This document shows positions 8,224-52,597 of a DNA stretch of 64,000 nucleotides, piece after piece. The position numbers and the translations under genes are program-made. Position 1 is the first letter of the stretch. Each line of letters starts with the position of its first letter. This DNA is from Luteolibacter sp. GTDB taxonomy: Bacteria; Verrucomicrobiota; Verrucomicrobiia; Verrucomicrobiales; Akkermansiaceae. A model generated the notes under the pieces. That model was not told where the DNA came from, did no database searches, and saw only the letters and a list, made by a program, of their open reading frames with translations. The stretch is from the NCBI GenBank assembly GCA_030696085.1, contig JAUYNL010000046.1, positions 4,696 to 68,695 on the forward strand. The letters are read 5' to 3'.

Positions 8224-9117
8224 ATGAAAGCCGTTTACACTCTCGACGACCTTGTTTCCCGCGAGACGCTGGATGCCGGCGCGGACAAGCCCGTGCGCCT
8301 CGCCGTGCTTGGCTGGCCGATCGCCCACTCCGCCTCGCCGCGCATGCACCAGCCGGCGCTCGATGCGAACGGCATCCGCTGCCGGTACATCCGCCTGGAA
8401 GTGGAACCGGGAAACATCCCCGAGGCCTTCGCCCGGATGCGCGCGCTCGGTTTCATCGGCTGCAATGTGACGGTGCCGCACAAGCTCGACGCCATGGAAA
8501 ACTGCACCGAAGTCCACCCGGACGCGCGCGCGCTGGGCGCGGTGAACACCGTGCGTTTCGATGCCGACGCCACGCGCGGCTTCAATACCGACGGGCCGGG
8601 ATTCGCCCGCGCCATCGCCGATGATTTCGGGGTGCCGCTCGGCAGCCTGAAAGTCGCCATCATCGGCGCGGGCGGCGGCGCGGGGCAGGCCATCGCCACA
8701 CAATGCGTGCTGCTGGGCGTGGCGAAACTCGTTCTCGTCAACCGCACGATGGAGAAGTTAGGCCCGCTGGTGGAGCGCTTGCGGGCAGCCGGTCGCGCCA
8801 CGGAAATCATCCCGCTCTCCTTCGATGACGCATCTCTGGCGGATCGCTGCGGCGCGTGTGATCTGATCGTGAACACCTCATCCTTGGGCCTGAAACCCGG
8901 CGATCCCTCCATTCTTCCCGCAAGCTGCCTGAAGGCGGAGCACCTCGTGTATGACACGATCTATCAACCACCGGTCACGCCGCTGCTCGCCCTCGCCCGG
9001 GCCAAGGGCTGCCGCACTTCCAACGGACTCTCCATGCTGCTTCACCAGGGAGCGCTCGCCTTCCAGCACTGGTTCCCTCAAACCGATCCGCTTTCAGTCA
9101 TGCGAGCGGCATTGTAG
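8224..9117 (+). CDS. aroE: shikimate dehydrogenase
   Basis: LAVLGWPIAHSASPRMHQPAL..., NVTVPHK, GAVNTV...NTDGPGF, IIGAGGGAGQAIA (NADP-binding), LVYDTIYQPPVTPLL. Confidence 0.9.
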   Translation: MKAVYTLDDLVSRETLDAGADKPVRLAVLGWPIAHSASPRMHQPALDANGIRCRYIRLEVEPGNIPEAFARMRALGFIGCNVTVPHKLDAMENCTEVHPDARALGAVNTVRFDADATRGFNTDGPGFARAIADDFGVPLGSLKVAIIGAGGGAGQAIATQCVLLGVAKLVLVNRTMEKLGPLVERLRAAGRATEIIPLSFDDASLADRCGACDLIVNTSSLGLKPGDPSILPASCLKAEHLVYDTIYQPPVTPLLALARAKGCRTSNGLSMLLHQGALAFQHWFPQTDPLSVMRAAL

Positions 9118-18953: not shown

Positions 18954-19029
<76 letters not shown>

Positions 19030-28299: not shown

Positions 28300-28702
28300 G
28301 AGGGGTGCCGCTCCCCTGTAAGCCGGATTCTGTCCATCCCGCTTGCGCGGAACTGGACGGCCATTTCTCTCACCCCGCCGAGGCGGAGCGCCCCGCTTGC
28401 GCGGAGTGCGACTAATACCCGGAGATTAAACGGGCGGGCAGCCCTTCCCCTGTTCTGTCTTGCACCACGCGGGGTTTGCCGTGCCGCTCCGGTTACCCTC
28501 GGCGCGGTGGGCTCTTACCCCACCATTTCATCCTTACCTGTGCCCTTGCGGGCCATCGGCGGTATGCTTCCTGTTGCACTTTCCGTCCGGGTCCCTCGCG
28601 GTTCCCGTCCCTCACTTTCATGAGGCGCGTTGCCCTGTGGTGTCCGGACTTTCCTCAAGCCCCGCTTGCGCGGAGCCTGCGACCGTCCGGGGAGCGGCCC
28701 GG
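28300..28702 (-). ncRNA. rnpB: RNase P RNA, bacterial type A
   Basis: The minus strand carries the universally conserved blocks GAGGAAAGTCCGG (P4 5' side), ...CCGATGGCCCGCAAGGG...GGTAAGGATGAAATGGTGGGGTAAGAGCCCACCGCG..., and ACAGAATCCGGCTTACAGG (P4 3' side). The P1 pairing is CCGCTCCCC/GGGGAGCGG. A terminal hairpin plus a T6 run lies at about 28290-28300. Ends are good to about 10 nt. Confidence 0.92.
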
Positions 28703-49314: not shown

Positions 49315-49656
49315 CTATGGAGCGGCGGACGCGACACTACGGCGGTGTGTCGGCGCGGGATCAATCTCTTCAACGACGGCGAGGGAGATCGGACGTAGTT
49401 TTGATCCGTTCTCCTCGAGTTGCTTGCGGATGACGAAGCGGTTGAGGAGTTGGTCCATCCGCATTTCGGTGGTGCGGATTTCCAGGCGGCAGTGTTCGAC
49501 GCGGCGGTCGATCGCATCGATTTCCCGCCGAACTTGAATCTGGCGGTTCTTATAAAAGACATGGAGCACGCCGCCGGCCGCCATGATCGCGAAGGCGAGG
49601 ATGACGGAGAAAATCACGGACGGGGGCGTCCGAACCTGATCACGGCGACGGTTCAT
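49315..49656 (-). CDS. ftsL: FtsL-like cell division protein
   Basis: 113 aa. A single TM helix (VIFSVILAFAIMAAGGVLHVF) is followed by a coiled-coil-like segment. It sits between rsmH and ftsI, with an ATGA overlap to rsmH. Confidence 0.65.
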   Translation of the reverse strand: MNRRRDQVRTPPSVIFSVILAFAIMAAGGVLHVFYKNRQIQVRREIDAIDRRVEHCRLEIRTTEMRMDQLLNRFVIRKQLEENGSKLRPISLAVVEEIDPAPTHRRSVASAAP

Positions 49657-50627
49657 GAGGTGGGGTCCAAAAGGCGTGCGACCCGCAGTTTGGCACTGCG
49701 GGCTCGCGGGTTGCGGGTTGTTTCCTCAGCACTGGGGAAGATGGCCTTGCGGGCGAGAAGCTGGAATTGGAAATCCGGATTCGGTCGGGGTTCCGGCCAG
49801 CCAGGGTCATCGATGAATGCGGTGGACCGGTGCCGGAGGAAACGCTTGACCATGCGGTCCTCCAGGCTGTGGAAGGTGATTACCAGCAAACGCCCGCCCG
49901 GTTTGAGGACGGAAGGTGCGACGGCCAGCGCGGCGGCCAGAGATTCGAGCTCCTCGTTGACCGCCATGCGGATGGCTTGGAATGCGCGGGTCGCCGGATG
50001 GGTGCGGCCATGGCGGCCGACGGCGGCTTCGATGCAGGCGGCGAGCTCGGTGGTGGTCGCGAATTTTCCGAGAGCCCGTTGTTTCACGATGGCTGCGGCG
50101 ATGCGCCGGGATCTGGGTTCCTCGCCAAATTCGAAAAAGATGCGGGCCAGATCCGCCTCGTTCCATTCATTGACGATTTCCGCAGCGGTGTGCGGGCTGG
50201 AAGGACCCATCCGCATGTCGAGCGGTCCCTCGCGCATGAAGGAAAACCCGCGGACCGCCGAATCGAGCTGGCGGGAAGAGACTCCCAGATCGAGCAGGAG
50301 CCCGTCGGCGCGCCCACCCTGCTGGATCGCCGGAATTTCACTCACTCGTGAAAAATTTCCCTCCCATGTGGAAAAACGTCCGCCGAACTCACCGAGCCGT
50401 TCGCGCGCGTGCGCAAGGGCCTCCGGATCGCGGTCGATGCCGAGCACCGAAGCGCCAGCCTTAAGAAAAATTTCGCTGTGACCGCCGCCGCCGAGAGTGC
50501 CATCGATGATGAATTTGCCCGCCGCAGGCTCCATCCATCCGGCAATTTCCGCCGGAAAAACCGGCAGATGATAGCGCCCGTCTGGTGCCGCTTCTTCAGA
50601 AAAACCGGCGGGGGCCTGCGCCGACAA
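49653..50627 (-). CDS. rsmH: 16S rRNA (cytosine1402-N4)-methyltransferase
   Basis: YHLPVFPAEIAGW..., IIDGTLGGGGHSE, LLDLGVSSRQLD, GFSFMREGPLDMRM, AIRMAVNEEL, ITFHSLEDRMVK, NPRARSAKLRV. There is no ATG near the conserved N-terminus. I place the start at the in-frame TTG 50627. The ORF stays open to 51338. Confidence 0.85.
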   Translation of the reverse strand: MSAQAPAGFSEEAAPDGRYHLPVFPAEIAGWMEPAAGKFIIDGTLGGGGHSEIFLKAGASVLGIDRDPEALAHARERLGEFGGRFSTWEGNFSRVSEIPAIQQGGRADGLLLDLGVSSRQLDSAVRGFSFMREGPLDMRMGPSSPHTAAEIVNEWNEADLARIFFEFGEEPRSRRIAAAIVKQRALGKFATTTELAACIEAAVGRHGRTHPATRAFQAIRMAVNEELESLAAALAVAPSVLKPGGRLLVITFHSLEDRMVKRFLRHRSTAFIDDPGWPEPRPNPDFQFQLLARKAIFPSAEETTRNPRARSAKLRVARLLDPTS

Positions 50628-51113
50628 CCAGCCAGAAGCGGCGCAGGCACCCGTAGTTTCGACAAGACACCGTGCTGTCCCGAGTCCGGTGTCCTGCGTT
50701 ATTTCAGAAAATCCCGATGGCCGCGCAAACAACACACCTGAAGCGGCGCGAACCATCGTCTGGAGCTGCGGAAAAAGCCCCGTCCCGGGGAGTTCTCCGC
50801 GCCCAACCATGAAAGTCACCGGACGCCGCGCCGACAACCAGCCAGAAGCGGTGCGGACGTCCGTGGATTTGACAAAACGCCGTGCTGTCCCGAGCCCGGC
50901 GTTTCTTCTGTCAGGGAAAATTTGCGATGGCCGCGCGAACAACCAGCCGGAAGCCGCGCGGACCATCGTTTCAAATGACGAAAGAAGTTCTGTCCCGAGA
51001 GACTTCTTGCGCCCAGCCATGAAAACCGGCGAACGCCGCACCGACAACCAGCCAGGAGCGGTGCGGACGTTCGTGTTCCTGACAAGACCCGGTGCTGTCC
51101 CGAGCGCAGGGTC
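50614..51113. repeat. array of ten imperfect hairpins (about 2.5 copies of a ~210-bp unit built from ~105-bp sub-units) between mraZ and rsmH
   Basis: A-type hairpins are at 50614-50648, 50715-50758, 50821-50862, 50925-50968 and 51030-51073, with loop consensus ACAACCAGCCRGRAG. B-type hairpins are at 50666-50693, 50768-50800, 50875-50904, 50983-51007 and 51086-51113, with loop core GTCCCG (TGCTGTCCCGAG in three of them). Stem sequences differ between copies but remain complementary. Confidence 0.85.
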
Positions 51114-51252
51114 CTGTATTTTGGAAAAAAGGAATCCCAACTCCGGAGCCTGGGCGACGACGGCCGGAGCCGCCGGTATGCGGACCGCCTCAAGCGCCAG
51201 AGTTGGTGGGGTGAACAACATTGCTGCTGTTGGGTGTGTCGTGGGTGAGTGG

Positions 51253-51705
51253 TTAGAAAATACCGAGGTCGTCGTCTTCCTCCTGGCCCATTTCGATGGC
51301 CAGCTTGGTGTCGAAGTTCGTTTTGGACCAAATTTCAAAGTGCAGGCCGCGCCCGGCGAGCATCACATCGGACTCGGCGGCGATGCCGGCCATTTCACTG
51401 AGATCTTTGGGAACAAGCAGCTTTCCCTGTTCATTGAGAGCGGTTTCACGGGAAAGCATCGCCAGCTTGCCAAGGGTCTTGTTCTTTTCCGCAGGGGTTT
51501 TTTCACTGTTCTTGATGAGCTCCACCCGTTCGTCATAGGCGGCTTGGCTCAGGACCTTCACGACCGGCATGTCGTGCTCCTTGGAGAACAACAAATACAA
51601 CGAGGCTCCAGCTTCCGGCCGCCAAGCACTTGGGACGGAAACCCGAAACTTCGGGTCCATCTTGAAGGGCTTGAATCCCTTGTAGGGCTGGTGGGTGTTG
51701 CTCAT
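51253..51705 (-). CDS. mraZ: division/cell wall cluster transcriptional regulator MraZ
   Basis: Two SpoVT/AbrB-like halves: KMDPKFRVSVPSAWR and NEQGKLLVPKDLSEMAGIAAESDVMLAGRGLHFEIWS. It is the first gene of the dcw cluster. Confidence 0.85.
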   Translation of the reverse strand: MSNTHQPYKGFKPFKMDPKFRVSVPSAWRPEAGASLYLLFSKEHDMPVVKVLSQAAYDERVELIKNSEKTPAEKNKTLGKLAMLSRETALNEQGKLLVPKDLSEMAGIAAESDVMLAGRGLHFEIWSKTNFDTKLAIEMGQEEDDDLGIF

Positions 51706-52109
51706 CTGAAAGCACTAACGGTCGCGTCAGTGTTCGGAAAGTACACTAAAACACACTCAGCCAGCAAGATTTATTTGGCGGAAACTAAATAAAATTTTTA
51801 AGAACTGGCAATCAACGAGTTGCGCTCATGGAAAACTGCAAATCGCCAATTTTCAATCGACCAAATTCACGGCATTGGCGATATTTTTGAATAAACTCCA
51901 TCCTTTTCTGAGGCGTTTTTGGCACTTTCCGGGGTCGGTGTACCAAAAAACTTCAAAAATACAGCAAGGTGTACTATGGCTGGACTTTTCAACTACGAAC
52001 TCGTGGAAAATCACCGAAAAATTCCGCAAACCGCCATCGGCTCCTGAAATTTCGCCCTTCCCCCACCCCGCTGGATTTGATCGCCCCAATCCATGGTGAT
52101 CCGGACGAC

Positions 52110-52144
52110 CCCAAAACAAGACCAATAGGCCGCACAATGCGGCC
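52110..52144 (-). terminator. rho-independent terminator-like hairpin downstream of the DUF465 gene
   Basis: On the minus strand, GGCCGCA-TTG-TGCGGCC (52128-52144) is followed by TATTGGTCTTGTTTTGG. Confidence 0.5.
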
Positions 52145-52198
52145 TTGATCCCATCTCGGTCCGGCGAAGGTCTCCCTGCCACCGCGTTTTACCACACT

Positions 52199-52450
52199 TC
52201 AGGCCTTGGCGATTTCCGCGCGCAGGGCTTGGTAAATCTGGTCTTTCAGGGCAGCCCGCTCGAATTTCATGCGTTCGATCTCCAGATCGGATATCGGCGA
52301 CTGCCGCTCCTCAAGCTGGCGGATTTCGTCGTCAATATAATCGTGCTTGGCGACCAACGAATCGAAGGAGGCATCGGTGGCGCGGAGCGCGTCCAACATG
52401 CGGCGATATTCGGGAAACTCGTGACTGATGTCGTGATGTTCGGAGAGCAT
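52199..52450 (-). CDS. DUF465 (YdcH-like) family protein
   Basis: Only the last 83 aa of track ORF 52199..52936 look genuine: MLSEHHDISHEFPEYRRMLDALRATDASFDSLVAKHDYIDDEIRQLEERQSPISDLEIERMKFERAALKDQIY. Confidence 0.75.
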   Translation of the reverse strand: MLSEHHDISHEFPEYRRMLDALRATDASFDSLVAKHDYIDDEIRQLEERQSPISDLEIERMKFERAALKDQIYQALRAEIAKA

Positions 52451-52597
52451 GATCAGGTTTTCTATGGTTGGTGTGAAATGTGCCGGATTCTGGACAAACA
52501 GGAGCGGTGATGGCCAGCGCAAAAGAAGCGATTTCGCGGAGTCCGGAGCGGTGTGTTCCGGGCGATGCTGTGAATTTTTGGAAACCGCTCTTGTCCG

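Follow-up and report, generated by a model that had tools for sequence, protein, structure and literature searches.

Several classes of hairpin-rich elements are known from bacterial transcripts. The REP/BIME arrays of enterobacteria (repetitive extragenic palindromic sequences and bacterial interspersed mosaic elements) stabilise upstream mRNA and bind host proteins, while CsrB/RsmZ-type RNAs are independent small RNA (sRNA) genes that sequester proteins and carry many hairpins with the same short loop motif. Signals of phage and host transcripts include the boxA/boxB elements of lambda nut, which are shared with rrn operons, and the put RNA of HK022. Tied to rsmH itself, the actinobacterial mraW motif (RF01746) has been catalogued as a likely cis-acting regulatory RNA (Weinberg et al. 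2010, PMC2864571). Structured RNAs internal to open reading frames (ORFs), such as the ftsI-derived fragment in the dcw (division and cell wall) operon of E. coli, have been described as decRNAs, decay-generated noncoding RNAs (Dar & Sorek 2018, PMC6156199), and numerous unrelated genes harbour Rickettsia palindromic elements (PMC10969869). Here we describe a tandem array of two hairpin types, A and B, that lies within the 5' part of rsmH, just after mraZ, in the dcw cluster of a Luteolibacter sp. The array is part of a stretch of 64,000 nucleotides of contig JAUYNL010000046.1, hereafter the window, and it is best read as a new structured-RNA module or family of the ORF-embedded, cis-acting kind that has no counterpart in Rfam.

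The array resembles each of these systems in part. It shares with the mraW motif a conserved structure tied to the 5' side of mraW/rsmH, but the architecture differs, and the motif is an untranslated leader in Actinomycetales whereas the verrucomicrobial array is inside an ORF. A search of 49500-52500 with Rfam cmscan at E ≤ 10 returned only spurious matches (mir-558, mir-3155, RNaseP_nuc) and not the mraW motif, which agrees with the view, taken earlier from the letters of the window, that the two are different. With decRNAs the array has in common a structured ORF-internal segment, stable stem-loops, nucleotide conservation beyond coding needs and little synonymous preference. It differs from them in its tandem two-hairpin modules, its invariant loops, the unconstrained protein tail that it dictates, its phage homologues and its unrelated sequence. 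Like REP/BIME arrays, it is a tandem arrangement of two alternating hairpin types inside an operon; however, REPs are extragenic, dispersed in hundreds and alternate in orientation, whereas the present array is almost certainly translated, is built of direct repeats and occupies one locus in 540 kb. Rickettsia palindromic elements and intragenic MITEs (transposable elements of the miniature inverted-repeat type) are likewise palindromic, about 100-150 bp long, placed in frame in a gene and read as protein, but here a single orthologous site is occupied clade-wide, with long-term covariation and invariant loops. The nut and put signals are similar in being small conserved-loop hairpin modules of phage and host operons that act, as we suppose of the present modules, on the sense transcript; they differ in having no sequence similarity to our units, which follow stop codons rather than promoters and, in the host, form a tandem array in a region that appears to be translated. 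As in CsrB and RsmZ, many hairpins bear the same loop motif, and the hexaloop of hairpin B contains GGA in 205 of 215 copies, but the A loop, which is the most conserved, lacks GGA, and the array is not an independent sRNA gene because it lies inside an ORF. We found no description of this array in the literature.

The array consists of five units of 105 nucleotides (50602-51126) that are in register without indels, each made of one B hairpin and one A hairpin, and it is preceded by a leader hairpin. Tandem Repeats Finder reports a period of 210 (2.3 copies, 78% matches, 50618-51105) because two kinds of unit alternate, with a terminal kind besides. In sense order, and with the scores of our covariance model R1, the elements are:

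51137-51206, minus strand: leader hairpin, a long stem with an inner hairpin (RNAfold and pair counts, 59 loci)
51022-51126, minus strand: unit 1 (type I), hairpin B at 51086-51113 and hairpin A at 51030-51073, R1 92.8 bits
50917-51021, minus strand: unit 2 (type II), hairpin B at 50983-51007 and hairpin A at 50925-50968, R1 104.3 bits
50812-50916, minus strand: unit 3 (type I), hairpin B at 50875-50904 and hairpin A at 50821-50862, R1 97.8 bits
50707-50811, minus strand: unit 4 (type II, the most diverged), hairpin B at 50768-50800 and hairpin A at 50715-50758, R1 75.3 bits
50602-50706, minus strand: unit 5 (terminal type), hairpin B at 50666-50693 and hairpin A at 50614-50648, R1 85.9 bits

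All ten A and B hairpins, which had been picked out in a sequence-only reading of the window, fold as described there and far better than shuffled sequences. On the sense strand the A hairpins reach -20.8 to -28.2 kcal/mol (z -2.8 to -4.7) and the B hairpins -5.5 to -19.5 kcal/mol, and a 666-nucleotide stretch compared with dinucleotide shuffles gave z = -4.7 for the sense and -5.6 for the antisense strand. Hairpin A combines a stem of 13-14 bp, in which a single base is bulged, with an internal loop (CUY/UUGU) and a GGCU tetraloop, around which loop positions 4-11 and 5-10 are paired (C-G, then U.G, C-G or A-U). Hairpin B has a variable stem and an invariant CGGGAC hexaloop closed by three covarying base pairs; this hexaloop occurs in 205 of 215 copies. 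The loops are conserved, as the sequence-only reading had it, but they are not entirely open, since two base pairs flank GGCU in A and three close CGGGAC in B. Likewise, its statement that all A hairpins share one loop holds for four of the five, in which ACAACCAGCCRGRAG is exact (50624, 50834, 50939, 51044), while the hairpin labelled A2 reads ACAACACACCTGAAG. The loops of the diverged unit 4 are CCCGGGACGG (B) and CUUCAGGUGUGUUGU (A). The leader hairpin begins 16 nucleotides after the ATG of the ORF, lies within its first 85 nucleotides and has a free energy of about -45 kcal/mol when folded with the first 99 nucleotides; it covaries as well, with pair 25-76 being AT in 29, GC in 9 and GT in 8, and pair 30-71 being CG in 25 and TA in 15 of the 59 loci.

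The earlier case for covariation had only five copies of each hairpin type to draw on, and it stood up when related spacers were brought in. Stem pairs were counted on 76 non-redundant units (alignment A1), in which 93.3% of the cells of the hairpin A stems are paired, compared with 82.1% after shuffling (none of 500 shuffles reached the observed value) and 30-54% when the partner was slid. Cells in which both partners have changed number 150 against 55 in the shuffles, although these counts take in paralogous copies, such that the evolutionary events are fewer than the cells. The switches include CG in 111, TA in 47 and GC in 23 units at one pair and AT in 103 and TA in 64 at another, besides GC/AU exchanges. 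RNAalifold recovered hairpin A from the mixed alignment of the 76 units; hairpin B escaped it owing to a shift of one nucleotide in register between type I and type II units. Hairpin B was therefore examined by comparing duplexes formed with the own partner arm and with swapped ones, which gave -13.8 versus -8.6 kcal/mol (p = 1e-54; 215 distinct copies, 166 distinct arm sequences). With stems that covary strongly in 91 related loci and loops that are almost invariant there, a selected structure rather than a recent duplication, as had been proposed, is the reading that the data bear out.

The strand on which this structure matters can be approached through wobble pairs. The sense strand is the more stable one for 155 versus 53 B hairpins and for 116 versus 84 A hairpins, and the A stems read on the sense strand contain 115 G.U against 54 A.C combinations, with one position that goes the opposite way; this is the very pair from which the sequence-only reading had drawn a weak hint of a plus-strand, antisense transcript. 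That hint is thus reversed by the larger collection and by the phage-like copies described below, all five of which are co-oriented with their neighbouring genes. As such, the G.U asymmetry and the orientation of the phage copies favour the sense dcw mRNA over an antisense transcript, in a manner that is supportive rather than decisive.

The array does not occupy a spacer between mraZ and rsmH, as had been assumed, but lies in an ORF that is continuous with RsmH, that is open in 73 of 74 loci and whose ATG follows the mraZ stop codon by about 30 nucleotides. The genes at this junction are arranged as follows:

51253-51705, minus strand: mraZ, 150 residues, first gene of the dcw cluster (from the ORF list), stop codon 51253-51255
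51222-51252, minus strand: C/A-rich spacer of 31 nucleotides from the mraZ stop to the ATG (alignment of 59 loci)
49653-51221, minus strand: extended rsmH ORF, 522 residues, ATG at 51219-51221 and stop at 49653-49655
49653-50570, minus strand: canonical RsmH methyltransferase core, from HLPVF to the stop (Pfam PF01795)

The stop-free frame that follows mraZ on the minus strand extends over 561 codons (49653-51338), and 682 nucleotides separate the mraZ stop (51253-51255) from the first conserved residue of the RsmH core, a His codon at 50570. PF01795 (Methyltransf_5) matches the core only (E = 3.9e-100; residues 217-516, profile positions 3-307 of 309), and the RsmH entries 3TKA, 1WG8 and 1M6Y of the PDB align from about residue 216 of the query onward. 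At the other end of the gene, the stop codon of rsmH and the start codon of ftsL overlap in the sequence ATGA (49653-49656), and translation through the array is thus likely coupled to the synthesis of FtsL.

To avoid gene-caller bias, we fetched 80 loci from species-representative genomes with the RsmH core as the sole query, mostly from Luteolibacter and Akkermansiaceae metagenome-assembled genomes plus Luteolibacter pohnpeiensis. In 64 of them mraZ was also present, at a spacing of about 320-400, 450-480, 670-690 or 885-897 nucleotides with few intermediates. The RsmH frame runs without a stop across the spacer in 62 of 63 usable species-level loci, whereas the other five frames are each free of stops in just 1-3 of the 63 and hold 2.5-5.3 stops on average, and shuffling the mononucleotides of the spacer stretch left frame 0 free of stops in 1.2% of cases. 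A further 11 of 11 metagenome loci are open too, giving the total of 73 of 74, with core identity down to 64% and MraZ identity down to 43%. The single interrupted frame belongs to L015 (2711-3026), which has a spacing of 106 nucleotides and comes from an assembly of 2.3x coverage. Another locus, L220, has fragmented mraZ and rsmH, and both look like assembly indel errors and not biology. Distances between successive A loops are 105 nucleotides nearly everywhere, and the variants (99, 102, 108, 111, 141, 207, 210 and 213) are all multiples of three. Some units of the more distant metagenome loci L118, L127 and L130 (core identity 68-71%) measure 117 nucleotides, or 39 codons, and remain in frame. 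The ATG (51221) aligns in 59 of 59 leader sequences, and no ATG, GTG or TTG occurs between the last hairpin loop and the RsmH core. Taken together, the open frame in 73 of 74 loci, the spacings in multiples of three and the conserved ATG imply that ribosomes must read through the array, and hence this region is almost certainly translated.

Database records point the same way in part. A protein search returned very many RsmH homologues of 516-525 residues that cover 100% of the 522-residue query, and further length classes of about 450 and 589 residues. The NCBI annotation of this gene starts at a TTG in the last A loop (50625-50627) and yields a product of 324 residues (P0063), and such internal starts probably truncate the 522-residue ORF; other RsmH relatives listed by NCBI have 365 and 374 residues. 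It is because of the array that gene callers differ by up to 200 codons (324-374 residues at NCBI, about 520 elsewhere). An extension-only ORF of 348 residues (P0121) was considered as a separate gene and set aside, as its source assembly is rich in indels and has fragmented genes. The spacer between mraZ and the ATG is poor in G and conserved at the nucleotide level (CACCCACCACACACCCAACAGCAGCA-ATG), and the alignment of 59 loci revealed no Shine-Dalgarno-like sequence in these 31 nucleotides. In the same alignment, nucleotide conservation continues across the ATG (…CACACCCAACAGCAGCAATGTTGTTCACC…).

Although it is translated in all likelihood, the extension shows little sign of selection as protein. 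In a collection of 242 A loops and 231 B loops from related loci, the sense sequence of the A loop is CUYCUGGCUGGUUGU, in which the Ala and Gly codons show 94% and 93% conservation at their four-fold third positions and the Leu codon is UUG in about 97% of the copies (third base 208/210, first base 206/210), while the Ser/Pro codon is free to vary at its first position (T in 81 copies, C in 123). For comparison, conserved four-fold sites of the RsmH core in the same genomes keep the major base in a median of 56% of sequences, and UUG is a minor Leu codon there. The B motif CTCGGGACAG is read in a Leu-Gly-Thr frame in 177 copies and in a Ser-Gly-Gln frame, shifted by one base, in 51, and the frame is restored ahead of the next A loop, such that 237 of 242 A loops share one frame. 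Conservation of the unit is 0.71/0.68/0.68 at the three codon positions, i.e. without codon periodicity, with only a crude sorting into type I and type II behind these values. Six independent close species pairs show 88/86/121 substitutions by codon position in the extension and 80/55/404 in the core, and the ratio of synonymous to non-synonymous changes in codons with a single difference is 74:106 and 365:59, respectively. No Pfam family matches the extension, and a protein search with the extension alone matched only RsmH proteins or fragments, with no other protein family that carries the repeat. AlphaFold, run with an alignment of 44 sequences, assigned residues 1-221 a pLDDT (predicted local distance difference test) of 20-27 and no secondary structure, as opposed to mostly 65-92 in the core, which has a few low-confidence blocks. 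Selection thus acts on RNA structure and loop sequence, and the amino-acid sequence is barely constrained. Since an open frame is the only coding constraint, the N-terminal tail of about 216 residues would be a by-product and is probably disordered. A repetitive N-terminal protein extension, offered in the sequence-only reading as an alternative, is therefore correct as far as translation is almost certain, but not in the sense of a protein sequence under appreciable selection.

The unit is confined to this site in the sequence searched. Covariance model R1 finds only the five units in the window, and a unit profile run with nhmmer over 540 kb (the window and related loci) placed 299 of 300 matches in rsmH 5' regions, the remaining one being marginal (E = 0.49). 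The suggestion of a generic, dispersed REP- or MITE-like repeat did not survive this search. Of the related loci in which mraZ and the RsmH core are both found, 75 of 75 have the array at this same site, at MraZ identities as low as 43%; mraZ orthologues stand upstream of every array (tblastn), and the number of units per locus varies from 1 to 7. A metagenome scan for the 17-mer of the A loop gave at least 120 stretches. Among the matches listed are 21 stretches with genuine units, 19 of which adjoin mraZ and/or rsmH. One stretch is a chance fragment, and another, L165, carries one whole unit in surroundings that lack dcw genes. Scans of viral contigs added single units in L204, L213 (identical to L217 and L219), L216 and L218; in the loose pattern scan of these contigs chance matches were about as many as real ones, and the candidates L212, L214 and L215 were rejected after folding. 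The five phage-like loci, which represent four distinct B+A units, are:

L165, about 8693-8787, minus strand: phage-like single B+A unit
L204, 8405-8493: phage-like single B+A unit
L213, 7557-7658: phage-like single B+A unit
L216, 2771-2875: phage-like single B+A unit
L218, 2315-2417: phage-like single B+A unit

These units score 26-45 bits with R1 (E = 3e-10 to 3e-5), are intergenic, have covarying stems of their own and neighbour terminase, portal, endolysin, spanin-like and tail-fibre-like genes, with which they are co-oriented in five of five cases. The B stem starts 8-16 nucleotides past the stop codon of the upstream ORF, and the B loop is found at +20 to +30. They are non-coding, as no frame for read-through stays open consistently. 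In L165 and L216 the unit has kept its position even though the upstream ORFs are only 44% identical and the stems entirely different, and single copies with a kept position and differing stems indicate that the B+A unit is an autonomous, selected module. UUUUU follows hairpin A directly in L165 and L216, with a partial tract in L213, and host units have a conserved UUU about 8-10 nucleotides past the A stem.

Two functions suggested by the position of the unit were considered and dropped. A recoding signal in the phages seemed conceivable as the B loop lies at +20 to +22 after the stop in four of five, but neither a read-through nor a frameshift frame is consistently open, and that of L165 stops after two codons. 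Hairpin A as an enhancer of translation starts was suggested by an ATG about 10 nucleotides downstream in type II units and L204, yet some of the aligned units lack this ATG, and according to the ORF lists a close downstream start codon is absent in L165, L216 and L218. Sequences complementary to the loops occur within the window at chance level only, and the loops are not known to bear any convincing similarity to 16S rRNA around C1402 or at its 3' end.

We favour the reading, which we regard as reasonably likely, that the array and the leader hairpin form a chain of structured-RNA modules on the sense dcw mRNA, within the translated 5' part of rsmH, whose loops are recognised by a host factor. 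Translation would start at the ATG (51221), pass every hairpin and enter the RsmH methyltransferase core. Loops that stay invariant while their stems vary are the hallmark of a site that is read by a trans-acting factor, and the loops may thus represent putative recognition sites for a factor of the host, most likely an RNA-binding protein or RNase, given that phages keep one copy right after late-gene stops. Here we speculate that this factor sets the fate of the transcript just past the end of a cistron, be it by processing, by stability or protection of the 3' end or by attenuation. The ratio of MraZ to RsmH matters for division control, and the array sits at the mraZ/rsmH junction. With several copies placed just after mraZ, the array could determine how mraZ is balanced against the remainder of the operon, the host copies tuning mraZ against rsmH-ftsL-ftsI and the genes downstream. 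Ribosomes that read through would melt the hairpins, and hence binding of the factor would compete with translation and make the element translation-sensitive, while keeping some 680 nucleotides translated might avoid polarity on the overlapping ftsL. Phages, in turn, would tap the same factor through their one copy, 8-16 nucleotides past late-gene stop codons. A bolder version, which we consider possible but doubtful, takes the B+A module for the docking site of a new verrucomicrobial RNA-binding regulator or RNase, with translated host copies that gauge translation capacity or ribosome quality and so set cell-division gene expression via the ATGA overlap with ftsL, and with phages that use or titrate the factor. 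In that case the coding content would be dictated by RNA structure, and the RsmH tail would be a 'passenger peptide'.

Several points weigh against the reading that we favour. The trans-acting factor is hypothetical, and the sequence data give no reason for a regulatory array to be translated when it could merely be intergenic. The G.U asymmetry could stem in part from strand-biased mutation, and the covariation in part from DNA-level correction of palindromes by template switching. The mild excess of substitutions at third positions in the extension, together with 41% synonymous changes as compared with a random expectation of about 25%, leaves room for some constraint at the protein level. 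Locus specificity is established for 540 kb, and other copies may exist in the host genome; L165, a solitary unit, is one of the 21 genuine metagenome matches listed. In addition, a scan of the window for intrinsic terminators gave 6 sites with 4.1 expected, which is not above chance.

Among the alternatives, the array might be excised by RNases from the rsmH coding region and serve as a stable multi-site sponge or decoy that titrates an RNA-binding protein or sRNA, in the manner of decRNAs or CsrB. Structured RNase-resistant fragments from coding regions have been reported (Dar & Sorek 2018, PMC6156199), and the many identical loops in tandem and the GGA within the B hexaloop CGGGAC would suit such a role. 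However, the best-conserved loop, that of A, has no GGA, the array has neither promoter nor terminator of its own, and the single copies of phages fit a cis element better, which makes a sponge unlikely in our view. A selfish or otherwise DNA-level palindromic element (REP/BIME, MITE or Rickettsia palindromic element) that was amplified in tandem at a tolerant site, with frame-breaking insertions lost, appears improbable. Its hairpins would have a role in single-stranded DNA, if any, complementarity being kept by template-switch correction. In its favour, Rickettsia palindromic elements do insert in frame into genes and are translated (PMC10969869), both strands fold well with the antisense strand at z = -5.6, the copy number shifts by one or two units, and related units occur in phages, which are mobile DNA. 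Yet 540 kb held no convincing copy outside rsmH 5' regions, all 75 related loci with mraZ and the RsmH core carry the array at the same place, the loops are invariant at protein-neutral sites, the sense strand is the one on which G.U pairs are preferentially tolerated, and phage copies run in the direction of their flanking genes without exception. Terminal inverted repeats or target duplications were not noticed either, although no systematic search was made for them.

The remaining explanations concern the ORF itself. According to one, the rsmH ORF, with its leader hairpin and the ten hairpins that come after it, is a self-sensing device that is translated efficiently only by ribosomes with (or lacking) m4Cm1402, thereby coupling RsmH and ftsL to the modification state of the ribosome. 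Translation of mRNAs that have a stem-loop on or directly behind the start codon has been reported to require RsmH-modified ribosomes (Park et al. 2026, PMC13317604), the covarying leader hairpin is found at +16, and the rsmH stop overlaps the ftsL start; nevertheless, the expected sign is a positive feedback, odd for homeostasis, invariance of the loop sequence is not needed, and the non-coding phage copies are left unexplained, so that we think this quite improbable. A functional N-terminal domain of 35-residue protein repeats (LGTA...VRxASGWLxAR), to which hairpins and nucleotide conservation would be incidental, could account for a frame that is open in 73 of 74 loci, a period of exactly 35 codons and residues that are invariant in the protein alignment (e.g. 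G57, W58 and L59). This explanation is very improbable and largely refuted by the same nucleotides being read in two frames (LGT and SGQH), by synonymous sites of the loops that are as conserved as the others, by the lack of codon periodicity, by a pLDDT of about 22 and the lack of a Pfam family, and by stem covariation for which it gives no reason. Least probable of all is an untranslated, intergenic regulatory RNA with rsmH starting at the TTG of the last A loop (324 residues) or at another internal start. While the NCBI start at 50627 (P0063) and the non-coding phage copies speak for it, such an RNA would not leave one frame free of stops in 73 of 74 loci, would not limit indels to multiples of three and would not keep an ATG 31 nucleotides after mraZ.

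The array adds a new family of structured RNA that has good support and covaries over hundreds of copies, from a phylum that has received little study and from its phages, and represents a clear natural case in which RNA structure, and not protein function, shapes several hundred translated nucleotides. It further illustrates how one and the same thing can be misread, be it as 'N-terminal extensions' or as 'long intergenic spacers'. In addition, the proposal that RsmH-modified ribosomes handle structured ORF starts differently (PMC13317604) becomes testable with this array.

Further features of the window are as follows. A 367-codon ORF on the opposite strand (50689-51792, plus strand) crosses the array antisense to mraZ, and it is a chance ORF, given that antisense frames are closed in relatives (open in 1-3 of 63). 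Rfam matches at the gathering score in the window are RNase P RNA (class A, 198 bits; 28303-28698, minus strand) and two tRNA genes (983-1056 and 18957-19029, both minus strand), with no others. At the junction of array and core, there is a direct repeat of 24 nucleotides with 75% identity (GAAAAACCGGC…; 50555-50622, plus strand), which on the sense strand corresponds to GCCGGUUUUUC in two occurrences, 44 nucleotides apart.

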